Positions 1,150-37,477 of a stretch of DNA of 37,713 bases are shown here, piece after piece. Position 1 is the stretch's first letter. The number at the start of each line of letters is the position of its first letter. Source of the DNA: a virus (lineage: Duplodnaviria; Heunggongvirae; Uroviricota; Caudoviricetes); IMG/VR virus record IMGVR_UViG_2802429240_000007. One strand, given 5' to 3'. The notes under the pieces are model-generated. The model was not told the DNA's origin, made no database searches, and worked only from the letters and a program-made list of their open reading frames with translations. Position numbers and translations under genes: made by a program.

Positions 1150-1728
1150 CTAATTACTGCTGGTCGCCATCGCTCGGATTGAGCGTAAATCATCCAGGTT
1201 GCTCAACCTCTCTTTCATCTCCCGCTGACGTTGATAAATCTCGTCGTTGCGATCGACCTGCGCCTGCGCCATTGCTGCTGCCAGTTCTTCCAGTTCCGGC
1301 ATCGACAGTTTCACCTGTTGATTATCGGCGTCACCCCACGCCATAACGTCCCGCGCCGTGTCAGATTTCGCAGCCATTACCACAGGATAAAGACGGGCCA
1401 TTGAGTCGGGGCCAGCATTCCAGGTACGACCGTTCCATTCGAACGTGAACGGCAGTGCTTCCTGTTCTGTTCGCCACGCCTCGATTTCCCGCTTTTTGGC
1501 ATCTTTTGCCGCTGCGATAAGTTCAGGCGTGACTGTAAACGGGGCGATTTCACCCCATTTGCCGCTCTGTAACTCTTCCCAGATGCGCTGGCCTGTCGGC
1601 GCAGTATCATCCTGCATGGCGGTATACGGGACGAATTCCGTTTCACCTTCAAATAGCACCTCGCAATCAACCGCGCCATTTTCGAGATAATGCGCGTTTC
1701 TGATGCCTTTTACCGCTCTGATTTTCAT
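1150..1728 (-). CDS. Tail fibre assembly protein (Tfa-like chaperone)
   Basis: 192 aa immediately downstream of the large fibre gene; Tfa-like architecture; last phage gene before the host junction. Confidence 0.7.
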   Translation of the reverse strand: MKIRAVKGIRNAHYLENGAVDCEVLFEGETEFVPYTAMQDDTAPTGQRIWEELQSGKWGEIAPFTVTPELIAAAKDAKKREIEAWRTEQEALPFTFEWNGRTWNAGPDSMARLYPVVMAAKSDTARDVMAWGDADNQQVKLSMPELEELAAAMAQAQVDRNDEIYQRQREMKERLSNLDDLRSIRAMATSSN

Positions 1729-20964: not shown

Positions 20965-22127
20965 GATGCCTCCGGGGTGTCCTGCATAACCCAGTCTGTC
21001 AGCGCGTCATCCTCAACCGTCGCCACTGACCAGCGGTCGCCCGACTGTAACGCATACCGCCACGCGTTGCCGTCTTGCGTGACATGCTCCGCCCGTTCGA
21101 TGGTCTGCTGCATCAGCACATAGTCGGCGGCGGTCGGGGGCGTGTCTGCTGCACTGAGGCGCTTCATGACGTCAGCCGTAAGGTTTACCGTCTGCCGTGC
21201 AGCGCCCGTGGCAGCGACCTGTTCCGGTGACCGGATGGCCAGCGGATATCGCTGGCGTGCATCCAGTTCGCTGACGTTTGCCAGTCCCCGGGCAAAATCC
21301 GGCCCGGTCAGAGTGCCGGTGACATACTGGCGGGCACTGCGGTAATCATATTTTTCCAGTTCCGGCTGCCATGCCACCCGACCGGGATTAAATCCGAAGC
21401 CCGGGTCGGCGGTATACACGGAACCGTCCGGCATCTTCAGCCCCATTGTTCTGATGGTCTGGCCCGGCTGGCCATATTCCTGCTCAACCTCAGCCAGTCG
21501 CCCCTCGCTGCTCTGTACCGTCAGGCCATATTTCTCCACATCCGACGCCGAACGCGCCCGGATACGGCAGCGGCATCCGTATCCGTCCGGCGCGTAGAAA
21601 TACTCCCAGACCGGGTCATCCGCCCGGGCGGTAAAGCCATTCAGGGCGGCGTGTTTCGGGCGGGTGTGAAGGTCCATCACCGCCACGCGTTCAAAATAAG
21701 GCCGGTCGGCCACGTTCGCCATCTGCTGCTGATAACGCCCGGCGTTATATGACGACTGAATGTTGGTATCAAATATCGTGCGTAACCGGCGCGGCGTCAG
21801 CTGTCTGCCGTGCAGTTCGCCGGTGTCCTCGTCCACAATCAGCCGTTTACCCAGCCAGCCTTTTGACTCCAGCAGTGGCTCCAGTTGTGCGGCAAACTCC
21901 CGGAATGTCCCGCCGTCAGCCAGTGCCGCCGTCAGGCCATCACGGATATCCTTCAGCACATCCAGTTTCAGCACGCCCGCCACCGTGAACGCCCGGGCGT
22001 GTGCGATGTCCTTCACATCATGCCAGCGGAAGCCGATAACGTATCCCTTGCTTTCGAAATACTTAATCGCTTCTTCCGGTTTCAGGGTGTACGCATAACC
22101 CAGGTCAACATCGTCAGCTTTCGGCAT
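20961..22127 (-). CDS. Head morphogenesis protein (Mu F, gp30-like)
   Basis: 388 aa immediately after portal. Confidence 0.8.
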   Translation of the reverse strand: MPKADDVDLGYAYTLKPEEAIKYFESKGYVIGFRWHDVKDIAHARAFTVAGVLKLDVLKDIRDGLTAALADGGTFREFAAQLEPLLESKGWLGKRLIVDEDTGELHGRQLTPRRLRTIFDTNIQSSYNAGRYQQQMANVADRPYFERVAVMDLHTRPKHAALNGFTARADDPVWEYFYAPDGYGCRCRIRARSASDVEKYGLTVQSSEGRLAEVEQEYGQPGQTIRTMGLKMPDGSVYTADPGFGFNPGRVAWQPELEKYDYRSARQYVTGTLTGPDFARGLANVSELDARQRYPLAIRSPEQVAATGAARQTVNLTADVMKRLSAADTPPTAADYVLMQQTIERAEHVTQDGNAWRYALQSGDRWSVATVEDDALTDWVMQDTPEAS

Positions 22128-23709
22128 TCAGTCGCCCCCAGATATCCGCCACAAAGAATGCCTGCGTCAGCAACTGCCGCAGCGTTTCATCCGGCAGTTC
22201 CGGCCATGCTTCCGCCAGTACGTTCATGGCCTCGTCTGCATCCCGGCCTTCCTGTATGGCCTGCACCAGTGGGGCCACCAGTTCGTTCATCCCCTGCGCG
22301 ATGGCCTCTGCCGGAAGTTCTGCCCGGTCGATGGCGCGCTGTGCCGGGTCGTCCTCCCCGTTGTCCTGCTGACTGAGCGCGGCAACATTCAGCCGCTCAC
22401 GCAGCTGGCTGAGGCCCGCCTGCACAGGGAGACGCTGTGCCACCGGCACCAGAACCTCTTCGCCGTCTTTCGGGGTGGGGATACCGGTTTTTTTGCGTAC
22501 CCACGACACCGGGATATCCTTCATCCCCACTTTGTTGACCAGCACGCTGACGGCTTCCGCCACGCCCTTAATGTCGGCTTCCTGCTGCACATCAAACACC
22601 AGACGCGGCAGACGGCGTGGCGGGATATCCTGCCAGCCGTTCAGGCTGGCCATCATCTGTATCAGGCTGCTGAACATGCCGGACAGCTGGCGCGCATCGG
22701 CGGCCAGAATGTCGTGCCGGACCTCGTTATGCACATTACCCAGCGCGTTGGTGGAGGTTTTACCGTCGGCCTGGCTGGTCAGCGTACTGCCCAGAATCAC
22801 TTTTGAGGTGGTGCGCTCCGCCCATTCCACCATCGACATGAACGCCTCCGGCCCGCCGGATGCGGCCTCCTTGAATTCAATCTCGTTACCCTGCGGTAGT
22901 GCTGCCACCGCTTCATGACCCAGATTGACCAGGGCGTCAAGAATTCTGTCACGGTCCGCGTCACTGGTGCCCTGTGCATAGTAGGCAATGCGCGCCGGAA
23001 GGCCGTAAATCTCCAGAAACTCCGCCATATCACGCAGCGCAAAGTTTTTGAACAGATACGGCCAGACCAGTACGCGGAACAGGCCGGATGAACCCAGGAA
23101 CCCCGACCGGGCGTTGTAACGGTGAACCAGCCAGCCGAACGGCCACAGTGCGGAACCATCCTTGCCATCTTCCCCACGGTTGCCGTCATCCAGCCGGAGT
23201 TCGTCATTGTGTTCCGGCAGGGTAATAAACCAGTTATGCGGTCGCAGCGTCACCGCATCCGGTAACCACGTTTTATCCACGAACGCCCAGCTGATTTCCT
23301 GACAACTGAAGCCATAACCGACACTGCTCATCCCGTTGAGGATGATGTCCTCCATGTCCGGGATGCCGTGCAGCCATTCATCCACGGCGGCGGCCAGCTC
23401 CTTTTCTGCCTTCGAGGCATTGCGGGGCGGCTCCACCGACCAGTCCAGCGTCAGCAACGCTTTTTTGCGCTTTTCCATTTCAGCGAACAGATGGCCATCA
23501 CGTTCTTCCATATCCGCAAACAGCATCGCCTGCGCCGGAAGATAACCGCGTTCGGCAGCTTCCAGAATGCGCGGCAGTTTTCTGATGTTCAGACCACGCG
23601 ACGGGTGGTCTGGATAAATGCGCAGCCGTTCCGCCACTCTGACCGACTGCGTGGTTTTGAGTGCCTCACGTTTCAGCGGGCGTCCGTAAATATCAACAAG
23701 CTGTGCCAT
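22114..23709 (-). CDS. Portal protein (Mu gp29-like)
   Basis: 531 aa; downstream of large terminase. Confidence 0.85.
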   Translation of the reverse strand: MAQLVDIYGRPLKREALKTTQSVRVAERLRIYPDHPSRGLNIRKLPRILEAAERGYLPAQAMLFADMEERDGHLFAEMEKRKKALLTLDWSVEPPRNASKAEKELAAAVDEWLHGIPDMEDIILNGMSSVGYGFSCQEISWAFVDKTWLPDAVTLRPHNWFITLPEHNDELRLDDGNRGEDGKDGSALWPFGWLVHRYNARSGFLGSSGLFRVLVWPYLFKNFALRDMAEFLEIYGLPARIAYYAQGTSDADRDRILDALVNLGHEAVAALPQGNEIEFKEAASGGPEAFMSMVEWAERTTSKVILGSTLTSQADGKTSTNALGNVHNEVRHDILAADARQLSGMFSSLIQMMASLNGWQDIPPRRLPRLVFDVQQEADIKGVAEAVSVLVNKVGMKDIPVSWVRKKTGIPTPKDGEEVLVPVAQRLPVQAGLSQLRERLNVAALSQQDNGEDDPAQRAIDRAELPAEAIAQGMNELVAPLVQAIQEGRDADEAMNVLAEAWPELPDETLRQLLTQAFFVADIWGRLNAES

Positions 23710-23712
23710 TAA

Positions 23713-25353
23713 TTACCATCCTCCTGAACCAAAACGCCCGCCACGGTCACGCCCGGTGCTGCGTGGGGTGTGTATCTGAAATTTTGCGCTGCGCGACACC
23801 GCCAGCGTCCACAGCATGTGCAGACAGTCCGGGCCGTCATCATGGTCGGCCTTGGGGTAGTGGCGCAGCTGGTCAATCAGCGTCTGATGTGCGGGACTGA
23901 TGCGAATCAGGCCGTTGGCCATATGCGGCTGAAGGGACTCAATACGCAGCGCCTTATCCTCCAGCGGGATGACCGGCAGCGCCGGAACCGGCACGCCCAG
24001 CGCCGCCGAACGTTCAACCAGCACGGTACGCAGAAACTCCTGAAACTGGACGGACTCAAACGACCAGCACAGGCAGTGGTATTCCCGCTGATACTTAATC
24101 ACGTCTTCGATAAGTTTATTTGGCAGACGTCGGCGGATATCGGCTTCAACCACATCCAGAATGCCGGTAAAACGGTTAAAGCCCCCCACGAGAATGGCCG
24201 ACGGGTCGCGGTTTTTATTCTTCTTCCCGAGGCTGGGGTCAACAGCGCCGTAGAACACCCATTCATCAAGACGGTTAACCCAGAACTTAATGCAGCCCGC
24301 AAACAGCGCGTCTTCACCGCTGACCGGGTCGTTCTGGTATTCAGAATCAAAGGTGTCGTGACCGTCACGGACACGGATTTTCATCAGCGCCAGCAGGGGA
24401 CGCGCCGCCCATGACACCACCGACCCGGCGAGCATGTCGGCTTCGTTCTGTCGGTAAAGTGCCTCCGCCGCTTCCGGCTGTTTGTTGCGGATGAGTTCTT
24501 CCCACTCGTCCCACAGTTTCATATTGGCAGGCCACTGAATGACGGCCTTAAAGCGGGCCGTTTTCCACATCGGGTTATTGAGCGTGCGCGAGAGTACGGA
24601 GTCGTAATGCAGGATGGTCCCGATATAAATAATATCGGTTTTACCGCCAGCCTCGCCCAGCGGCATCACGGTTTTGGTGAGCCAGTCGTGCAGCTTGTCG
24701 CGCTGCTCCGGGTTACGCACCATCTCGTCGTTCTCGATGTCGTCGAGGATGACCAGGTCAGGACGGTACGGACCGTGGCGCAGGCCACGCAGTTTTTTAC
24801 CACTACCGGCAACGGTCACCTTGATATTGTTGGCCGTGACGATGGTCCCCATACGCCAGACGCGCCCCTGTCCGCACACCTCCGGGAAATCGTTTTTTAA
24901 ACGGGGGTTAAATTCCAGTTCAGCCTTGATGGCTTCCAGCATCGGATAAGCCTGGTCGATACTGTCCATAATGATGACCGGATAATGCTTAATACCCCGG
25001 ATAATGGTCCACAGGGTAAACAGCTGAGTCACCAGCGTGGATTTTGCCTCACCACGAGGAGCGGCGATGGCGTCGTTCTCCGGGTCAGGGCTTGCCACAA
25101 CCTGTGGCAGCCGGATGAACAGGTATTTATGCAGCTCGCTTTTTGCCGGGTTGCGGACGTAGTGCGGGAAATAGTTTTCGACAAAATAATCGTAGCCCGT
25201 CACCGGATCGCAGACTGCCGCCCGGCGGGCCTGTGTGGCCTGCGGGTTAACATCGAACCCCAGACATTCAGCCTCGATGGTCTGTCGAAGGTTGGCGATG
25301 TACTCCTGTAAGCTTTTCTGAAACTCTTTAATGGAAAGTTTACGTTTTGCCAC
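23713..25353 (-). CDS. Terminase large subunit (Mu gp28-like); start uncertain
   Basis: Terminase-like N-terminal region and nuclease-like C-terminal region; no ATG at the 5' end, so the start is GTG at 25353 (just after the methyltransferase stop) or TTG at 25410 (55-nt overlap). Confidence 0.8.
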   Translation of the reverse strand: MAKRKLSIKEFQKSLQEYIANLRQTIEAECLGFDVNPQATQARRAAVCDPVTGYDYFVENYFPHYVRNPAKSELHKYLFIRLPQVVASPDPENDAIAAPRGEAKSTLVTQLFTLWTIIRGIKHYPVIIMDSIDQAYPMLEAIKAELEFNPRLKNDFPEVCGQGRVWRMGTIVTANNIKVTVAGSGKKLRGLRHGPYRPDLVILDDIENDEMVRNPEQRDKLHDWLTKTVMPLGEAGGKTDIIYIGTILHYDSVLSRTLNNPMWKTARFKAVIQWPANMKLWDEWEELIRNKQPEAAEALYRQNEADMLAGSVVSWAARPLLALMKIRVRDGHDTFDSEYQNDPVSGEDALFAGCIKFWVNRLDEWVFYGAVDPSLGKKNKNRDPSAILVGGFNRFTGILDVVEADIRRRLPNKLIEDVIKYQREYHCLCWSFESVQFQEFLRTVLVERSAALGVPVPALPVIPLEDKALRIESLQPHMANGLIRISPAHQTLIDQLRHYPKADHDDGPDCLHMLWTLAVSRSAKFQIHTPRSTGRDRGGRFGSGGW

Positions 25354-25354
25354 G

Positions 25355-26095
25355 TCACACCTGCGCTGCTTCTGCCTGCGCTTTTTCGAGACGTGCGCAG
25401 GCGATATCAAAATACTGGTTAGTCATTTCAATGCCGGTAAACCGTCCGCCACGGGCAAGTACAGGGATGGCGGTGGTGCCGCTTCCCATAAACGGATCGA
25501 GAACGTGCGCATCCGGTGCCAGCGGTTTAACCAGCTCGGCCATCAACTGAACCGGCTTTGCCGTCATGTGCAGTTTTTCGGACGGGACAACACGCTGCGT
25601 AATCACACCCGGGAACGGGCCACCGTGCGGGCATTTGTCGAGTTTTCCGTTGCTGCCCCAGACCACATACTCGGCCTGATGCCGGAAATAGCCGGTGTGT
25701 GGCGCACGGGAAGCAAGCGTTTTATCCCAGACAACCAGACCACGCCACAGCACACCACCGGCCTGAAATGCATCGGTAAGTGCCGGTAGTTGTCGCCAGT
25801 CACTGAACACCATGAAATAACCGCCGGGATTCAGCCTGTGCAATGCATGAGATATCCACATGGAACACCAGAACGCCCAGCTGCGCTGGTCGCGGTTATC
25901 GCCGGTGAACTCGGCATACTGGGTGTGACCGACATACTTGTCCGAAGGGGCCATGCTGCGGTCTGATTTGTGTGTGCCACCACTGCTGTAAGGCGGGTCG
26001 GTAATGACGGCATCAAAACGTTCAGATAACGCCGGCAGCACATCAAGAACATCACCGCAATACAACGTTGCGTTACCAATAATCTGTTTTTGCAT
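25355..26095 (-). CDS. DNA methyltransferase, beta-class amino-MTase, probably N6-adenine
   Basis: 246 aa; DPPY motif near the N-terminus (ITDPPYSSGG) and FxGxG AdoMet motif near the C-terminus (DPFMGSGTT), i.e. motif IV before motif I. Confidence 0.8.
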   Translation of the reverse strand: MQKQIIGNATLYCGDVLDVLPALSERFDAVITDPPYSSGGTHKSDRSMAPSDKYVGHTQYAEFTGDNRDQRSWAFWCSMWISHALHRLNPGGYFMVFSDWRQLPALTDAFQAGGVLWRGLVVWDKTLASRAPHTGYFRHQAEYVVWGSNGKLDKCPHGGPFPGVITQRVVPSEKLHMTAKPVQLMAELVKPLAPDAHVLDPFMGSGTTAIPVLARGGRFTGIEMTNQYFDIACARLEKAQAEAAQV

Positions 26096-26106
26096 TACAA
26101 ATCCCG

Positions 26107-26126
26107 AATATCAGACGGCCCGGAAA
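26107..26126. other. Perfect GC-rich hairpin between small-terminase-like gene and methyltransferase
   Basis: CGGCCCGG AAAA CCGGGCCG, 8-bp stem with 4-nt loop. Confidence 0.5.
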
Positions 26127-26141
26127 ACCGGGCCGCTGTGG

Positions 26142-26642
26142 TTAACTGAAATTATCCTCAAGCTCTTTAGCGAAGCCTTCGAGCACCTCAAGAAACGGGG
26201 CATACTGTGCCGGGTGACGCTCCTTGATGAACGTGCCGAGCCGCTGCACCACTTCCAGTGCCGTGGCGAGCCGGTCGGTTTCCGGCAGGATTTTTTTACT
26301 GCTGGCCACCGCCTTACTGAGACTGTCAGACAGACTCGCCAGCAGTTCGACGGACTCCTGCGGCGGGATGTCCGGGTTCTGGTTCAGCCGTTCAAGCGTC
26401 GTCTGACACTTCACCACCAGACTGATAAGCACGGTGCGGGCGACACTTTCCAGCCCGTCACCGGCGAGCGCGTGCGCGGCCCGCAGCTTGTCCCAGTCGT
26501 CGCCGTTCTTCATCGCCTGCGTTTTCCAGCGCCGCGCGGTGTCGTGCGGCACGGCGTACTTCATGGCGACGATATCCAGCGGAAGCTGGTCAAAGATGTA
26601 CCCGTTACGGACTTTGTCCCTGATATCCTGTGACCACGCCAT
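26142..26642 (-). CDS. Mu gp27-like protein, putative terminase small subunit
   Basis: 166 aa; position directly upstream of the terminase region. Confidence 0.5.
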   Translation of the reverse strand: MAWSQDIRDKVRNGYIFDQLPLDIVAMKYAVPHDTARRWKTQAMKNGDDWDKLRAAHALAGDGLESVARTVLISLVVKCQTTLERLNQNPDIPPQESVELLASLSDSLSKAVASSKKILPETDRLATALEVVQRLGTFIKERHPAQYAPFLEVLEGFAKELEDNFS

Positions 26643-26848
26643 TAAGTGACCTTCTGAGCCTGTTCAATCAGGCATTTAACTTCGTCGGGATTTTCAAGAA
26701 CATACACGTTTTTCCCGGTATCCAGCTCAATGATCGTGCCACCATATGCACCACACTGACGGTAAAAATGGGTGATGCGTTCAGCGACTACCATGACAGC
26801 GCTGGTGCTCCCTGAGCCTGCGCATTCTGTAAATCTGATAATGCTCAC
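26642..26848 (-). CDS. Hypothetical protein (Mu gp26 position)
   Basis: 68-aa ORF; start coupled to the upstream stop. Confidence 0.35.
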   Translation of the reverse strand: MSIIRFTECAGSGSTSAVMVVAERITHFYRQCGAYGGTIIELDTGKNVYVLENPDEVKCLIEQAQKVT

Positions 26849-26869: not shown

Positions 26870-27052
26870 TCAGTTCTGCGAACACTGCCGGATGCCATCA
26901 ACAATCCGGCAGACCTGCGCCGCCGCGTCAAACAGCTGGCCCGCCCTGTTAATGTCTGTGCATCCCACCGGAAGCAACATCACCAGAAACAGGGCCAGAA
27001 CACAGCGCGCGGTTTTACGTGGCGTTCTGTGGGTCCAGTGCTGACGCGTCAT
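26870..27052 (-). CDS. Putative lipoprotein, possible spanin component
   Basis: 60 aa; hydrophobic stretch followed by lipobox-like LPVGC; overlaps the endolysin stop by 4 nt. Confidence 0.4.
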   Translation of the reverse strand: MTRQHWTHRTPRKTARCVLALFLVMLLPVGCTDINRAGQLFDAAAQVCRIVDGIRQCSQN

Positions 27053-27594
27053 ACCGCCACGCGCTCCTTCAGCCAGCCATAAACAAACGATTCGTTAGCC
27101 TCGCGTTTCTCTGCCAGCTCCAGATAGCGGTCACCCTGCGTGCAGTTCAGGGCTGTCAGCATTACCCGTTCACCGTCCTGACCGCGATTATTCAGGAAGG
27201 CGCGCAATGCACTGATGGTACGAGGCCCGATGCGTCCGTCTGCGTCCATATCCGGGTACAGCCTGCCGCGCAGATTGAACACATTCAGCCAACGCTGAAG
27301 CATTTTTGACGCCACAGATGGCCCCATATTCACACCGGTATCACACAGCTCTGCGGCAATATCAGGGGATAATGCCGCAACCTGGTCAAATCGCGGGCCA
27401 TACCAGTAATCGGCTTCCAGAATGTCCAGCGCCTGTTCGCGGGTTAAATTGCGCATATCACCACGGTATCCGTGGGCGCGGGCGACTTTTTCCGTAATGC
27501 CCCATTTGGTCGGACCGCCCTTATCATCCGGGTGATTGACGTAACCACCTTCTTTGCCCAGGACTTCATCAAAAATGTCATCTTTTGATTTCAT
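27049..27594 (-). CDS. Endolysin, GH108-type muramidase with peptidoglycan-binding domain
   Basis: 181 aa; resembles glycoside hydrolase family 108 enzymes with a C-terminal PG-binding region. Confidence 0.75.
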   Translation of the reverse strand: MKSKDDIFDEVLGKEGGYVNHPDDKGGPTKWGITEKVARAHGYRGDMRNLTREQALDILEADYWYGPRFDQVAALSPDIAAELCDTGVNMGPSVASKMLQRWLNVFNLRGRLYPDMDADGRIGPRTISALRAFLNNRGQDGERVMLTALNCTQGDRYLELAEKREANESFVYGWLKERVAV

Positions 27595-27880
27595 GTGGAT
27601 GCCTCAGTAACGAAAGGATTTTTGACAAATTCCCGTGCGCCCACACGATAAGCGCACAGAACACCAGATTCAGCGCCACAACCAGCCAGCTGGAGTGCGT
27701 GTATGTACCGGACAGCCAGCGGAACGGGATGATGATGTAGCCGAGCATCAGCCAGTACGCCAGCCAGGTAATCATCGGTTTATGCGCCGCACCGTGGCGG
27801 CGATACACAAACAACCCCAGCACAATGGCGAGACACAGCCAGACGTTCACGATACCGGCAAGGTTACTTTCCATTTCCAC
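27578..27880 (-). CDS. Small membrane protein, holin/antiholin candidate
   Basis: 100 aa with about three hydrophobic helices; adjacent to the endolysin. Confidence 0.45.
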   Translation of the reverse strand: MEMESNLAGIVNVWLCLAIVLGLFVYRRHGAAHKPMITWLAYWLMLGYIIIPFRWLSGTYTHSSWLVVALNLVFCALIVWAHGNLSKILSLLRHPHEIKR

Positions 27881-28256
27881 CCCCTCCGCCGCGCAGTCTG
27901 GAAAACAGGCCGAACAGCGATGAAATTTCCTGTTGATAAAGAAAGGTCAGTATCTTGATGGATAACGCCGAGACACCGACCGCACACAATGCATCGAGCG
28001 GCTTGTCGTTGTAGTGGGTCAGCCACTGCATCAGTGACGCAGCCACGCCAGCCCCCAGAACGCCAACCACAAACGCGACGAGCAGGTGGATGGCCATTCG
28101 CCAGACCGGGATTTCTTTCTGCTGCGTGACAACAAAAAGCGCCCCGGCAAACGCGCCCACCACGACCCCGAAATCGGTATTGGTGAGAAGGCCAAACACA
28201 CTGGCACCACCGATGGTGACTGCCACAGCTCCGCCGCCTGATAAGGGTTCAGACAT
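27864..28256 (-). CDS. Membrane protein, holin candidate
   Basis: About 130 aa from the ATG at 28256 (MSEPLSGGG...), preceded by CAGGAGAAACTC; several TM segments; Gly-rich C-terminus. Confidence 0.45.
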   Translation of the reverse strand: MSEPLSGGGAVAVTIGGASVFGLLTNTDFGVVVGAFAGALFVVTQQKEIPVWRMAIHLLVAFVVGVLGAGVAASLMQWLTHYNDKPLDALCAVGVSALSIKILTFLYQQEISSLFGLFSRLRGGGGGNGK

Positions 28257-28392
28257 GAGTTTCTCCTGTAAATCTGAGCCACTGACGGCCCGTAAATAAC
28301 ACCCTGTCAAAGGCACAAAAGCCTTTTGCAGGGCGCTATCCCTTAAGGTGCCTTGTGGTCTGAGTGGACAGGGTAAACGGTCTGGTGTGGTG

Positions 28393-28438: not shown

Positions 28439-28750
28439 TCAGAAGCGGGAAAGGGAATCCGGCGTAATAAGAGATTTATTACAAAGCGGAGCAGAGGCGT
28501 TCGCCTTTTCCATAGCTGCGCGCATCTCGTTTTCACTGGCGATGATGTCAGCAATGGCACACTGCAACGCTTCTTCCTGAACAACCATATCCGGTTGTTC
28601 AGCCATTCGGTTTAGCTGGCTGGCCAGATTTTTCATATAAGCGAAGCGGCGTCCGGCAGCATCCCGGGCCTGCTCTGAGTAGGCCGTATACTCGCCAAGT
28701 GCCGTATAGTTGGTCATAAGTGTCTCCTTTTTCTGAGGCCTATTAATCAA
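28439..28750 (-). CDS. Hypothetical protein in the Mu C (late activator) position
   Basis: 103-aa ORF (possibly starting at MTNYTALGEY); no helix-turn-helix obvious by eye. Confidence 0.4.
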   Translation of the reverse strand: MINRPQKKETLMTNYTALGEYTAYSEQARDAAGRRFAYMKNLASQLNRMAEQPDMVVQEEALQCAIADIIASENEMRAAMEKANASAPLCNKSLITPDSLSRF

Positions 28751-29210
28751 AAAGCCCCACCTGGGTGGGGCTTTTCAGCGAAGTCTGTTTTTGTCGTCGG
28801 TGTATCAGTTGCCATGCGTACCGATCTGAAATCCCGTAACGGGGACAGAGCAGTGCCAGCGCCTGCCGGTGTGAGCATCCGTCTTTTACATGCTGCTGTA
28901 AATCAGCCATAAAACGGGTGTTACGCAAGGCACGTAACGCATGATCACAACGGGGAATGTAAAACGGTGCACCGCCAAGAAAGCGGATCAGTTTGTTGAT
29001 TTCGTCTTCGGTCAGCACGTCATGTAACAGGGCATGGACACCGCCGGTGCGTCCGGCGTGTGCGCCGGTTTTACCGCTTAACGTCACGCCACCAAAAGAA
29101 CGAATCAACCGGGTCAGGGCGGGGAAGCCAATCACGCTAATCAGTTGCTGCACGGAATCGGGCAGCAGTGCCTGCGCATCGCGAAGATCTGTTTCACTGA
29201 AGGTCTGCAT
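28743..29210 (-). CDS. mor: Mor/C-family transcription activator
   Basis: 155 aa; C-terminal HTH-like segment (RYGISDRYAWQLI); directly downstream of the GemA-like gene as in Mu. Confidence 0.75.
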   Translation of the reverse strand: MQTFSETDLRDAQALLPDSVQQLISVIGFPALTRLIRSFGGVTLSGKTGAHAGRTGGVHALLHDVLTEDEINKLIRFLGGAPFYIPRCDHALRALRNTRFMADLQQHVKDGCSHRQALALLCPRYGISDRYAWQLIHRRQKQTSLKSPTQVGLFD

Positions 29211-29305
29211 GATGGCGTCTCCGGTAGTAACTTACTGTTATTATAGCCATACATGATCGCCTGTACAGACCACAAAAAAGCCCCTGCAAGGCAGGGGCTG
29301 ATTCT

Positions 29306-29719
29306 TTATTGTTTACGTGCTGCTCTGGCTCGTTTTCTGGCGTCTTTTGTCAGCGCCACCATCACCCCGAACAGTTGATCATCTGTCAGCCATTCGATCA
29401 CATGTTGCTTATACATGTGAGATGCCAGTCCTTCCGCATATGCCCAGGAACGACCGGCATCAGCCAGCAACGCTTCAATTTTGGATAATACCGATTTTCT
29501 GCTCATTGCCACACGGGGGCGGCGACCTTTACCGGCGGGGGCTTTACGCGGAAATCCCTGTTCGTGCATGTATTCCCGGATGATGCGCAGTTCATCGAGG
29601 TTGCAGCGTGTGGTGCTGGTTTTACCGGTCAGTCGGGCCAGCGTCTGGCGATAAAGGGCATCATCCCACCCCAGATACGCCTGACCGGCTTTAATGGCCC
29701 CGATCATCTTTTTCAGCAT
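29306..29719 (-). CDS. gemA: GemA-like regulatory protein
   Basis: Start taken at the MLKKMIGAIKAGQ ATG (29719); character of the GemA family; precedes mor. Confidence 0.65.
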   Translation of the reverse strand: MLKKMIGAIKAGQAYLGWDDALYRQTLARLTGKTSTTRCNLDELRIIREYMHEQGFPRKAPAGKGRRPRVAMSRKSVLSKIEALLADAGRSWAYAEGLASHMYKQHVIEWLTDDQLFGVMVALTKDARKRARAARKQ

Positions 29720-30005
29720 GTTTGTTATCCTCAAAACGCACGGTAAAACGTGAAACGCCAATCCCTGACAGGAACGCGGCGGCACGGTCAAGAGACAGCC
29801 ACGTCTTGTAATCGCCACGGCGTTCCTGTAGAAAATAGGACACCCCGGCGTGGCGATTCACAGCGAAGAGGTGATACACACCACCGAACCGCTGCACGAC
29901 GAACTCATCCACGCCACCGCTTTCAGCCTGTTGCCTGAAAGCTGCCATTCCGATTTGTTCAATCTTCATAATGACCAAAACACTACTTTTGGCAGACCAA
30001 AACAT
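29691..30005 (-). CDS. Hypothetical early protein
   Basis: 104-aa ORF whose 3' end overlaps the gemA start. Confidence 0.35.
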   Translation of the reverse strand: MFWSAKSSVLVIMKIEQIGMAAFRQQAESGGVDEFVVQRFGGVYHLFAVNRHAGVSYFLQERRGDYKTWLSLDRAAAFLSGIGVSRFTVRFEDNKHAEKDDRGH

Positions 30006-34283: not shown

Positions 34284-34523
34284 TCATTGCCATACGACGG
34301 TGCAGCCGTCGATACAGGACGTTTTCACCACGCGGCGCAGGCCGCTGAATGTCTGGATGATTTCCGTTACCGGCCATACAGGACCACCCACGGGCGGGCA
34401 GGCATAAACCACAGGTAAACGGTGATGCTGTCCCGTTACACGACCGCCAGTGGTGTGGATGGCCACACGGGCACGGGAACGGACGGCGTTAATGGTCTGC
34501 TTGTCCATCGTCTTGTTCTCCAT
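34284..34523 (-). CDS. Hypothetical small early protein
   Basis: 79-aa ORF; start overlaps the B stop. Confidence 0.4.
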   Translation of the reverse strand: MENKTMDKQTINAVRSRARVAIHTTGGRVTGQHHRLPVVYACPPVGGPVWPVTEIIQTFSGLRRVVKTSCIDGCTVVWQ

Positions 34524-35416
34524 CAGTGAATTAACATTTCTGCGAATTTATCAATGGCCTGCACACTGACCGGTGCATCGCTGATATCACAAATCCGGTA
34601 CACACCGCGCGCCAGTTTGAAGAGGCGGCGGGCATTACCCAGCGAGCGTGCGTAAAGCGCCTCGCTGATTTCCGGTTCTGCTGCTTCCGGCATCAACCCG
34701 GTAGCTATCTGGTTAAAATCTTCCTGCGACAACGTATCGCCCAGGTTAAGCGCCAGCGCCACACGGCTGTATAACTGGGCGAACTCACCACGACGCCCCT
34801 TAAGGTTAATCAGAAGACGAGGCATACCCGCCAGGACAACCCCGATACCCGCTTTGTCATGCAGACGACGCAGAACCTCCAGTGCGCGATAGGGGAGCAG
34901 TTCAGCCTCGTCCACCATCAGCAGGCGACCGGAATCACGCAGTTCGCGCACACAGGCATCTATCAGTTCGTGAATGTTGCCGCGAACCTTTACCCCCAGC
35001 TGGCGGCACAACTCCTCAAGCAGTGTTCTGGCTGTATAGCCCGGGTCAGCCTCAATCAGGACCGCATCCCGGTTTCTGGCGGCGTATTCACGCAGAATCA
35101 TTGTTTTGCCAAGACCTGCCGCGCCATACAGTACGCAGATTTCACATTCCAGGTGAGCATAGGCCAACACCTCCAGTCCTTTGGCAGCCATACCGGTGGC
35201 AACAAATTTCGCTTTAATACGGCGGCTGTTTTCCTTTTCCCGCTCACGGGTCACAAAGGCAGAAATGCGTTCTTCAATATCAGCCATATCGCCCTGATAT
35301 TTACCCTGTAAATACTGGTTGATAACGGCGCTGCTACGACCAATAGCACGGGCGACGTGGGTTTGCGTATAGCCGCGACGGGCCATTACGTCATTTAATT
35401 GCGTAATTAAACTCAT
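34523..35416 (-). CDS. DNA transposition ATPase (Mu B-like)
   Basis: 297 aa; N-terminal HTH-like segment; Walker A GAAGLGKT; Walker B-like LLMVDEAE. Confidence 0.85.
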   Translation of the reverse strand: MSLITQLNDVMARRGYTQTHVARAIGRSSAVINQYLQGKYQGDMADIEERISAFVTREREKENSRRIKAKFVATGMAAKGLEVLAYAHLECEICVLYGAAGLGKTMILREYAARNRDAVLIEADPGYTARTLLEELCRQLGVKVRGNIHELIDACVRELRDSGRLLMVDEAELLPYRALEVLRRLHDKAGIGVVLAGMPRLLINLKGRRGEFAQLYSRVALALNLGDTLSQEDFNQIATGLMPEAAEPEISEALYARSLGNARRLFKLARGVYRICDISDAPVSVQAIDKFAEMLIH

Positions 35417-35434: not shown

Positions 35435-37477
35435 TTAACGGTTGTTTGTGCCGTTTTTCTTTAAATTGCGCTCGCGTTCAGATGCGAATAAATAAAGTTC
35501 TTCTTTTTCCTTTTTCTCCTGGCGTTCCAGTCCATATCCCAGATTAAACTCAGGCTTCTGCGTAATAGCCGGGGTAAGCTCGCGTTTAGCCTCTTCGATT
35601 TTCTGCGCGGCCCGTGCAATGCGGCCTCTGACGCGTTTCTCCAGTTTTTGCTCGATAACTGGTTTAGCGAAGGCATCAACCTTGTTACCGTTCCAGATGG
35701 CATCGCAGATATAAGAGCCATCAGCCCGCCGGACAATGACACTGTTTGCATCATGAATATCGTAACTGACCCTGACTTCATTCCCGTGCTCTGCGGCCAG
35801 CTCATACGAGTAATAAATATTGTTGAATAACTGAATTTCCCCGCGAAATGTTTTGCGCGTCACTTCCGGTCTGAACATTTCATGCAGTTCTTCCGGCGAC
35901 AGGAAATCAATTTCAACATTCTGCTCTTTTATCAGTTTCCGGCGATACGCTGCCGGGCTGTAATATTCGCCATCCTCTTTGCGGGGAAGGCTGCTGTGTG
36001 GCCGGTTGTTATAGCGTCTGACCTCCAGTTCTATGGCTGCCATCAGTTGCTCAAAGGTGGGGATTTCATCCCTCGCCTTAACCTGCCGTTTTGTCAGTTC
36101 TTTCCCTTTGTGGGTGGCCTTAATGGCTGACTGCATAATCCGTTGCTGCATCATTACGGTTTCCTTGTCTGCTCCCTTTGAGCAGTACGTCTGGAAACTC
36201 AGGGCCACATCCCGGGGAATTTCCTTGTTAAGCCTTTCAATCACCCCGCGCCCCTGCGGGTTACCTGGTATCCCCGTGTGATGTTCCACACCCAGCCGGG
36301 GGAGAATCCCGGTAATATCGGCATCAAGAACCCGGTTTTTTTCGCCGCCCCCGTTATCGGAGTAATAAATCAGCGGTATCCCGTGCTGTGCCATGCCGTA
36401 ACGCAACGCATCAGCAACGGCTATCACGTTCTCCGACAGGGACAGCGACCAGCCCACAACAAAGCGTTGCCCCGCATCCATAACCAGCGTCACTTCTGGC
36501 CGGAAAATATTGCCGGTCAGTGGGTTAAACGCGGTCATCTTCATACAGTGACCATCCCCGACCCATACCGCATTAACCGGTAGCGATGTCCAGTCGCGCC
36601 GCACAAAGGGATTGAGCGAACGCCAGGCTGAACCGGTGGAGCGGAAACGCTCCTTAACAATCACCGGGACGTTGCTTAACACCCGTCTTACTGCGTGAAC
36701 GGAAGGCAGTGCTGCCAGCATTCCCGCATCATTCGCGTGTTTTTCATGCCACCAGGCTGAAAACTCGCGATACGCATATTCAACGGTCGGGCGCTTCCAT
36801 GAGCGATAGAACATAAAGAAATCGCTCAACCACCAGACCTGCTCCCACGGAGTTCCCTTATGATGACCGGGAGCCAGTAACGCCAGTAACTGATTGGCAT
36901 CACCGCGCGCCATCAGCCAGGCGGAATACCATTCCTGTAAACTCCCTGTACTGACGCCAGTTCGCTTACCCTGCCGGGCATTGGCGGTATTACCTGCCAC
37001 AATAACGCGCTCTGGCAAAGCCTCCTGGCGGATACCATCAACGATGTGTTTTATCGCTGCCGTCCTGGACATTCCTGCGTATTCACGCAGTTTATGCACT
37101 TCGGTAGCCAGCAATATCCGCGCATCAGCGATGGCCTTTTGCTTGTCGGTCAGTGCCTGAACTTCGCGTAATGCCAGTTCCGGGCATTTGACCATCACTT
37201 CCAGTTCATCGCGAACGGTAACGTTTTTAACTGCCTTCTGCTCAACCACGGCAGGCAGTTGTGCATCTTCCAGAACCTGATGGGTCAGGCGCTTACGTAA
37301 AACCTTCTGCGCTTCAGCGGGCAGACAGTCGATGTGATACTCGAATGCTTTGGTGCCTTCACGCTTGCGCTTCCATTCCGGGTGCGTCTCTGTGATCCGA
37401 TTGAGCGTCCAGCGCACCCCCTGAACTGTACCGGGCAAACCAGGAAGACCGGCCAGCTCATTGGCTGAATAAAACAT
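35435..37477 (-). CDS. DDE transposase (Mu A-like)
   Basis: 680 aa; N-terminal DNA-binding region and central catalytic core of MuA-like size and layout; directly between ner and B. Confidence 0.9.
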   Translation of the reverse strand: MFYSANELAGLPGLPGTVQGVRWTLNRITETHPEWKRKREGTKAFEYHIDCLPAEAQKVLRKRLTHQVLEDAQLPAVVEQKAVKNVTVRDELEVMVKCPELALREVQALTDKQKAIADARILLATEVHKLREYAGMSRTAAIKHIVDGIRQEALPERVIVAGNTANARQGKRTGVSTGSLQEWYSAWLMARGDANQLLALLAPGHHKGTPWEQVWWLSDFFMFYRSWKRPTVEYAYREFSAWWHEKHANDAGMLAALPSVHAVRRVLSNVPVIVKERFRSTGSAWRSLNPFVRRDWTSLPVNAVWVGDGHCMKMTAFNPLTGNIFRPEVTLVMDAGQRFVVGWSLSLSENVIAVADALRYGMAQHGIPLIYYSDNGGGEKNRVLDADITGILPRLGVEHHTGIPGNPQGRGVIERLNKEIPRDVALSFQTYCSKGADKETVMMQQRIMQSAIKATHKGKELTKRQVKARDEIPTFEQLMAAIELEVRRYNNRPHSSLPRKEDGEYYSPAAYRRKLIKEQNVEIDFLSPEELHEMFRPEVTRKTFRGEIQLFNNIYYSYELAAEHGNEVRVSYDIHDANSVIVRRADGSYICDAIWNGNKVDAFAKPVIEQKLEKRVRGRIARAAQKIEEAKRELTPAITQKPEFNLGYGLERQEKKEKEELYLFASERERNLKKNGTNNR

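Follow-up and report, generated by a model that had tools for sequence, protein, structure and literature searches.

The mom/com system of phage Mu carries out late DNA modification that is presumed to block restriction. Mom makes acetamido-adenine and is no methylase; its gene, under the control of Dam/OxyR, C and Com, lies at the right end of the phage. Mu-like prophages have been found to replace mom with methylases (Drozdz et al, 2012, PMC3299994). Those of the Hia5 type (Hia5, Hin1523 and Nma1821; FluMu, Pnme1; PMC3299994) are orphan DNA adenine methylases of mom-less Mu-like prophages with a presumed anti-restriction purpose. They are Dam-related (alpha-type), carry the FxGxG motif before DPPY (located near residue 194), are encoded at the right end in place of mom and are experimentally non-specific. 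M.EcoGII and M.EcoGI (Murray et al, 2018, PMC5778455) are orphan, non-specific beta-class adenine methylases of 349 aa encoded by E. coli prophages, specifically lambdoid/Stx phages, where they lie between Q and stx and are silent in the lysogen. Com-controlled N6_N4 methylases also occur in P2-like phages, such as Chuche and Burkholderia phage KS5, in which the arrangement of Com (gp21) and methylase (gp20) is already annotated (PMC3091744). Finally, morons are known to occur at the junction between the terminase genes (PMC10884400), where JBD26 has the Tab/anti-Tab pair, flanked by genes named small and large terminase.

The methylase gene described here lies in a window (the whole stretch of DNA that was analysed, 37,713 nt) that represents an Escherichia coli Mu-like prophage, whose phage genes all lie on the minus strand. 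It shares phage type and presumed purpose with Mu mom/com, but none of the elements that control mom is present in the window. In contrast to the Hia5 type, the enzyme is of the beta class, with DPPY first, and is encoded between the terminase genes; membership in the Hia5/Hin1523 family was rejected on this opposite motif order and location. The M.EcoGII family was rejected as well, as the homologue in phage 1720a-02 aligns only at motifs X/I (34% over 56 aa) and at motif IV, leaving the target-recognition middle unaligned. The P2-like enzymes belong to the same protein family and are likewise orphan, phage-borne and subject to late control, with the Escherichia phage Chuche methylase 54% identical. 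However, they have a Mu-Com-type zinc-ribbon gene directly upstream (Pfam PF10122, 1.1e-11), whereas the window has no Com-like ORF, so that control would come from the late-operon position. Tab/anti-Tab (PMC10884400) occupies the same slot of a Mu-like phage, DUF1804 then TerL, and anti-Tab is also on the late-operon strand. Its cargo is unrelated in sequence, and tab, which has a promoter of its own, lies on the opposite strand and serves to defend the lysogen, whereas the gene described here encodes a DNA-modification enzyme. Among solved beta-class methylases, M1.HpyAVI (GAGG), CcrM (GANTC) and M.BceJIV (GTWWAC) agree in fold and motif order (Foldseek 1e-13 to 1e-14, phmmer ~1e-14), but are only ~21–23% identical to the window methylase.

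Prophage context and identity of the methylase

The region recurs at 97–99% identity in complete E. coli chromosomes, and in a 99%-identical prophage PGAP names the ORF "DNA-methyltransferase". The original prediction, an orphan methyltransferase located between the terminase genes, was confirmed with respect to both the 246-aa ORF and its neighbours: the DUF1804 gene lies on one side and TerL on the other (Table 1). The window DUF1804 protein is ~50% identical to its homologues in D3112, DMS3 and JBD26, and a deletion mutant of the DMS3 "small terminase" yields only unfilled proheads (PMC10884400). As had been stated for comparison, Mu itself has no gene between gp27 and gp28, the spacing there being 7 nt. 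The absence of mom from the right end was also borne out. The tail-fibre-associated ORF is the last phage gene and is followed by a host permease gene (the left 987 nt of the window), which the right end of the prophage abuts at ~1–1150; gin, com and mom therefore cannot fit.

Table 1. Coordinates of the prophage genes and of the features of the terminase junction in the window.
Feature	Position	Strand	Basis or remark
MuA transposase	35435–37477	-	
MuB	34523–35416	-	
GemA	29306–29818	-	
Mor-family activator	28743–29210	-	
Holins (two)	27864–28316 and 27578–27880	-	
GH108 lysozyme	27049–27594	-	
60-aa ORF	26870–27052	-	Short spacer on each side
Small terminase gene, DUF1804 family	26142–26642	-	Pfam DUF1804 3e-52; PHROG 756; immediately upstream of slot
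Perfect 8-bp GC stem with TTTT loop	26116–26135	-	CGGCCCGG-TTTT-CCGGGCCG; 6 nt past DUF1804 stop
Variable segment, 743 nt	25364–26106	-	Methylase-positive alleles only; empty alleles have 7 nt (TGTATAC) here
Weak Shine-Dalgarno-like GGGA	26102–26105	-	6 nt upstream of methylase ATG; read from sequence
Orphan beta-class DNA amino-methyltransferase, 246 aa, probably N6-adenine	25355–26095	-	Pfam/PHROG/PADLOC matches, motifs, AlphaFold model
Catalytic motif IV, D33-P-P-Y36	25988–25999	-	Within TDPPYSSGG, invariant in the 20 aligned homologues
AdoMet-binding motif I, F202-M-G-S-G206	25478–25492	-	Within family-wide DPFMGS block
TerL Shine-Dalgarno AGGTG	25358–25362	-	Inside last methylase codons; in both allele types
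Large terminase (TerL)	23713–25353	-	PHROG 38 1.7e-143; TIGR01630; GTG start
Portal, Mu-type	22114–23709	-	
Tail-fibre-associated ORF	1150–1728	-	Last phage gene

The ORF matched Pfam PF01555 (N6_N4_Mtase) at 7.6e-24 with 85.3 bits, passing the cut-off of 26.7, PHROG 67 "DNA methyltransferase" at 8e-54 and the PADLOC Type II methylase model MTase_II at 6.8e-64. Under curated cut-offs it missed the named families PRK13699 (76.8 versus 244 bits), CcrM (49.9 versus 830) and PRK11524, YhdJ (41.5 versus 292). The order of motifs corresponds to the beta class, as had been proposed from DPPY preceding FxGxG: DPPY at residues 33–36 is followed by the target-recognition region, motif X (HMTAKP, 176–181) and motif I (FMGSG, 202–206). 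An alignment with 20 homologues, down to 56% identity, showed the catalytic and cofactor motifs to be intact and strongly conserved rather than degenerate. In motif I, D200, P201, F202, M203, G204 and S205 are invariant and residue 206 is either G or A; the DPFMGS block aligns with motif I of M.BceJIV and M1.HpyAVI.

The AlphaFold model of the methylase (pLDDT 82, pTM 0.83) is predicted to adopt a Rossmann-like methyltransferase fold resembling that of solved beta-class enzymes. The top PDB matches of the model comprise only beta-class amino-methyltransferases (M1.HpyAVI, CcrM, M.BceJIV, M.MboIIA, PvuII and RsrI), with TM-scores of 0.6–0.8. Based on the aspartate, rather than serine, in motif IV and on the "adenine-specific" family and source annotation, the methylated position is most likely N6 of adenine rather than N4 of cytosine. 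No target motif could be transferred to the enzyme, because the solved relatives are too distant and the DNA-contacting loops are not alignable. The source names of homologues are generic and give no target sequence, and literature searches returned no paper mentioning the RefSeq protein WP_001171801 and none on the Bordetella BPP-1 bpm homologue.

The enzyme is an orphan, or solitary, methylase: the element that encodes it has no cognate restriction endonuclease. In line with what had been noted earlier, the adjoining genes are the terminase subunits, and no nuclease or defence match was obtained among the other window ORFs tested; none is listed as a restriction enzyme in the annotation of the 99%-identical prophage. 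We also searched the window for a second DPPY ORF and for a Com-like ORF and found neither, and a Com profile built from 13 homologous loci gave no match to the window.

Occupied and empty alleles of the terminase junction

We scanned IMG/VR with the methylase and DUF1804 and mapped the neighbour genes of the matches. Among IMG/VR prophages with 99%-identical DUF1804, TerL and portal, some have the methylase and some do not. Of 5,426 complete E. coli genomes, 55 have the junction; it is occupied in 36 and empty in 20, with one of each in STEC316. The methylase is thus an optional presence/absence gene among near-identical prophages, and the indel that separates the two allele types is exact in the junction comparison. 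The variable segment begins after TCTGATATT on its left and ends before CAGGTGTGAC on its right. The empty allele reads TAA CCACAG, hairpin, TCTGATATT TGTATAC CAGGTGTGAC and the GTG of TerL, whereas the occupied allele reads TAA CCACAG, hairpin, TCTGATATT CGGGATTTGTA ATG, then the methylase up to GCAGCG, followed by CAGGTGTGAC and the same GTG. The last two codons of the methylase and its stop accordingly lie in sequence common to the empty allele.

One reading of such a locus is a recently inserted cassette or classical moron, with the GC hairpin marking its upstream boundary and the insertion forcing a non-ATG start on TerL. The absence of the methylase from near-identical prophages is compatible with it, as is the spacing of 9 nt between the hairpin and the left edge of the variable segment. 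The perfect 8-bp GC hairpin exists as had been claimed, but at 26116–26135, 9 nt off the proposed 26107–26126. The window has a single occurrence of the pattern, compared with a chance expectation of 0.01, and the local fold is more stable than that of shuffled sequences (z = -3.8). Its proposed role as an insertion flank did not hold. Methylase-less relatives have an identical hairpin directly after DUF1804 (L040, L043–L047 and L056; L numbers designate fetched loci), and variants of it are found in L059, L016, L018 and L073. The hairpin is a backbone element, present with or without the methylase.

The stem sequence is nearly invariant, with one G-U-compatible change (L011) and several loop changes, and a covariation test on it would be uninformative because it barely varies. 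The hairpin was not called as a terminator by the consensus scan, as it lacks a T run. It may possibly act as a weak terminator or as an mRNA-stabilising stem-loop, and could lower read-through into the methylase and TerL.

The start of TerL beside the methylase stop likewise proved to be part of the backbone. TerL does begin on a non-ATG codon, in agreement with the original prediction: the methylase TGA (25357–25355) is separated by one base from the TerL GTG (25353–25351), and the PGAP call agrees. An effect of the insertion on this start was rejected, since methylase-less alleles have the same GTG and the same AGGTG; the GTG start is also conserved in L059. The identity of hairpin, AGGTG and GTG in empty alleles argues against a recent cassette, and this reading is already largely refuted by the junction comparison. 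The indel boundaries showed no convincing direct repeats or microhomology by which an insertion or a deletion could be recognised, and the 7-nt TGTATAC of the empty allele is not accounted for by simple deletion.

Mu-like phages differ in the content of the slot between DUF1804 and TerL. The slot is empty in L040, L043–L047, L056, L059 and L067; holds the methylase alone in the window prophage, L072 and L073; small ORFs together with the methylase in L017, L018 (a lipoprotein-like ORF), L019, L080 and L082; and small ORFs only in L062–L064 and L068. A Klebsiella phage has three small genes in the slot, and D3112 has a reverse-strand gene there. We compared the small ORFs with Tab/anti-Tab and found no similarity. 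Megablast of the region against deposited phages gave no match, and the arrangement is absent from all deposited Mu-like phage records inspected, from which it follows that no experimental system with it has been described.

Age, selection and distribution of the methylase

We mapped the genes in all fetched loci with profiles and measured pairwise identities. The same slot holds a methylase of 75–81% identity in L016–L018, L072 (Intestinirhabdus) and L073 (Buttiauxella), in which DUF1804 is 74–79%, portal 73–76% and TerL 88–91% identical to the window proteins. In L080 and L082 (Serratia) the methylase of the slot is 61–62% identical and TerL only 40–41%. The coupling of stop codon, Shine-Dalgarno sequence and GTG is kept in these diverged relatives, reading "CAGGTGTAA C GTG" in L017 and L018 and "CAGGGGTAA AC GTG" in L016. 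L016, L017 and L018 also have a stronger G-rich sequence (GGGGGA/GGGGGAG) upstream of the methylase ATG. The empty relative L059 still reads "CAGGGGTAA TT GTG", and in two lineages the empty alleles still contain the final 10 nt of the methylase ORF with its stop codon, a hint that the gene was lost rather than gained.

The composition of the gene is ordinary: its GC content is 55.9% compared with 54.6% for the prophage, and we found no compositional anomaly that would be a sign of recent transfer. The GC3 of 59%, below the 68–76% of the immediate neighbours, could be cited for a recently inserted cassette. Against it stand the GC content, the retained ORF end in two empty lineages, the 75–81% methylase held with the "CAGGTGTAA-C-GTG" coupling by relatives whose flanks are 73–79% identical, and the failure to find a promoter or terminator of its own. 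Altogether we regard this reading as improbable.

Of the proposal of an acquired moron, the accessory presence and absence stood, but the recent arrival did not, given the diverged relatives with the same slot and coupling and the ordinary GC. The description as a classical moron was not upheld either: no promoter-like site or terminator belonging to the gene was found, it is co-directional within the late operon and its stop abuts the TerL start. Judged from these sequence comparisons, recent acquisition appears doubtful. The methylase is more easily read as an old resident that may repeatedly have been lost, or swapped by recombination between homologous flanks.

Among E. coli alleles of the methylase, dN/dS is 0–0.34, and a mosaic patch at residues 64–110 is common to L013, L014 and L027; this pattern fits purifying selection with allelic recombination. 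A decaying relic without activity is extremely unlikely in comparison. The gene is dispensable, being missing from a third of related prophages, and a truncated fusion form is known (P0038), but the ORF is full-length in 36 complete genomes, its exact sequence is present on 65 contigs, all motifs are invariant and the dN/dS values are low.

The family to which the methylase belongs is very large, with 7,474 proteins at E <= 1e-5 among 8,000 candidates scored. In a scan of species-representative genomes it was found in many phyla, and copies in the Mu terminase slot were confined to Enterobacterales. In Salmonella Mu-like prophages, the same late operon has a 62%-identical copy located between the holin and lysozyme genes; in L028 a family member lies between TerL and portal, and a Delftia P2-like prophage has one past its portal gene, at the end of the prophage. 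Those Ralstonia phages that have a homologue belong to the P2-like type. Of 129 loci, 13 have a Mu-Com-type zinc-ribbon ORF immediately upstream of the methylase, as does the P2-like phage Chuche. Several motifs are near-unchanged throughout the family (TDPPYSSGG, FxDWRQL, WDK, RAPHTGYFRHQxEYVVWGS, HMTxKP and DPFMGS) and include loops expected to contact DNA.

The invariance of these predicted DNA-contacting loops from E. coli Mu-like phages to Betaproteobacteria homologues, together with the Com-gated or deep late-operon positions of the genes, raises a speculative reading. The family might represent a second lineage of the beta class, made up of Mom-like "hypermethylases" with very low specificity, for which a very short or degenerate context would suffice to modify adenine. 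We consider this unlikely. If true, low specificity would account for the tight confinement of expression to the late phase and for one conserved enzyme serving phages of many hosts.

Expression and proposed role

From the holins to the portal, the genes are co-directional with overlaps or gaps of at most 3 nt, the exceptions being the two spacers that flank the 60-aa ORF and the 46-nt spacer with the hairpin. A scan with a crude sigma-70 consensus identified no promoter-like site upstream of the methylase; on that strand such a site was found only upstream of mor. With a consensus this crude, a weak internal promoter could be present. Based on the tight co-directional packing, the absence of a promoter-like site from the scan and the late or Com-gated contexts of the family everywhere else, we infer that the methylase is expressed late.

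Expression from the prophage would be expected if the enzyme acted on the host, as an epigenetic regulator, in lysogenic conversion or as a guard against the restriction enzyme of another element. Dam and CcrM are examples of orphan methylases that regulate host genes, CcrM also ranks among the nearest structural matches, and a weak promoter inside DUF1804 would be compatible with the consensus scan. However, the scan detected no promoter-like site upstream, the gene is embedded in the late operon, and the Com-type translational gate before relatives in other phages suggests that expression is off until late. M.EcoGII, moreover, stays silent in the lysogen, and its expression is harmful (PMC5778455). 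A host-directed function is thus a rather unlikely explanation.

The methylase could also regulate packaging by methylating sites that terminase needs or must avoid. In phage P1, Dam methylation controls cleavage of the pac site. Such a function would explain the place of the gene in the packaging module, where it is flanked by TerS and TerL here and by TerL and portal in L028, and its conserved stop/start coupling to TerL. Yet 20 of the 55 E. coli genomes have the same terminase genes (99% identical) without the methylase, the Salmonella Mu-like homologue lies in the lysis cluster and the P2-like homologue lies at the prophage end behind Com. Identical terminases without a methylase and these other positions make an essential or specific link to packaging unlikely, and we judge this explanation very improbable.

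Late expression for the benefit of the progeny is the interpretation that we favour: the gene probably encodes a functional, partner-less beta-class methyltransferase that is expressed late and protects progeny phage DNA from restriction. The anti-restriction role is plausible by analogy with mom, Hia5/Hin1523 and M.EcoGII. According to this model, the methylase would be co-transcribed in the late operon, only after induction and alongside the packaging proteins. Its translation would begin at its own weak ribosome-binding site and, as its stop overlaps the TerL ribosome-binding site, would continue into TerL. The enzyme made late would modify replicated phage DNA, and also the DNA of the dying host, just before packaging. 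On entering the next host, progeny DNA would then already have protection against those restriction enzymes that this methylation blocks. Because a third of related prophages lack the gene, its benefit is likely to be conditional.

As an optional phage gene the methylase is fairly ordinary: orphan methylases are common in phages, and this one is already named as such in public annotation. Its location shows that the moron slot known from the Pseudomonas Casadabanvirus group is also used in Enterobacterial Mu-like phages. If the enzyme did prove to be of low specificity, the Hia5/M.EcoGII toolbox would gain a compact member of 246 aa. The methylase-positive and empty alleles, otherwise ~99% identical and both present in STEC316, form a natural pair that could gauge the worth of a phage-borne orphan methylase against defined restriction systems.

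Variation in the methylase and its homologues in other arrangements

Three related prophages (L013, L014 and L027) carry alleles of the orphan methylase in which approximately 15 amino acid changes, common to all three, are clustered in residues 64–110. This patch corresponds to the helix that follows the DPPY loop of the enzyme. The remainder of the methylase and its flanks are still 98–99% identical in these prophages, and the patch looks like the product of recombination between alleles.

Homologues of the methylase were also observed outside the terminase slot, the interval between the small (DUF1804) and large (TerL) terminase genes. In Mu-like prophages on three Salmonella enterica contigs (L154–L156), a methylase with 62% identity is flanked by the holin and lysozyme genes, and the stop and start codons overlap in this holin-methylase-lysozyme arrangement. 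The terminase slot of these prophages is occupied by different cargo; one of its ORFs, 159 aa long, runs on the opposite strand and gave no Pfam match. In addition, in a 217-aa E. coli protein (P0038), a Phage_holin_3_7 domain is joined to the C-terminal 70% of the methylase (90% identical); this fusion probably arose by deletion in a defective prophage.

Other variable genes around the terminase slot

In some relatives, the terminase slot contains a small forward ORF directly 3′ of DUF1804 together with a small reverse-strand ORF. The layout in L017 and L068 resembles that of anti-Tab/Tab, the published gene pair in the terminase slot of the Mu-like phage JBD26; sequence similarity of the L017 and L068 ORFs to Tab and anti-Tab was not found. 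The 68-aa ORF immediately upstream of DUF1804 (PHROG 7691) is variable among otherwise near-identical prophages, with 97–99% identity in some and only 59–76% in others, and it was undetected in some of the compared relatives.

Regulatory-type features near the Mor-family gene

The interval between gemA and the Mor-family gene contains a strong terminator-like stem-loop and a promoter-like site, and looks like the end of an early transcript combined with a middle-type promoter.

Coordinates of the features described in this part
Feature	Position	Strand	Details
Methylase patch	window 25766–25906		residues 64–110
Terminator-like stem-loop	within window 29240–29299	−	AGCCCCTGC-CTT-GCAGGGGCT, then TTTTTT
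Promoter-like site	within window 29240–29299	−	TGTACA-16-TATAAT, 10/12 matches; directly after the stem-loop
Perfect 12-nt inverted repeat	window 28750–28775		AAAAGCCCCACC / GGTGGGGCTTTT; Mor-family gene 3′ end, start of next ORF (28439–28750)
68-aa ORF	window 26642–26848		
Slot small ORFs	L017 5525–5915		
Slot small ORFs	L068 6698–6901		
Salmonella methylase region	L154–L156, about 4800–8400		

Copies in particular E. coli records

Both places counted as plasmid in the search appear to be 249-kb E. coli records (NZ_OZ547097.1 and NZ_OZ547049.1), which would mean that a large plasmid has received the Mu-like element by transposition. E. coli STEC316 (NZ_CP041431.1) harbours two copies of this prophage type, near 624570 and 2038693, of which one has the empty junction and the other the methylase. 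This strain offers a ready-made natural comparison of a methylase-bearing and an empty junction.
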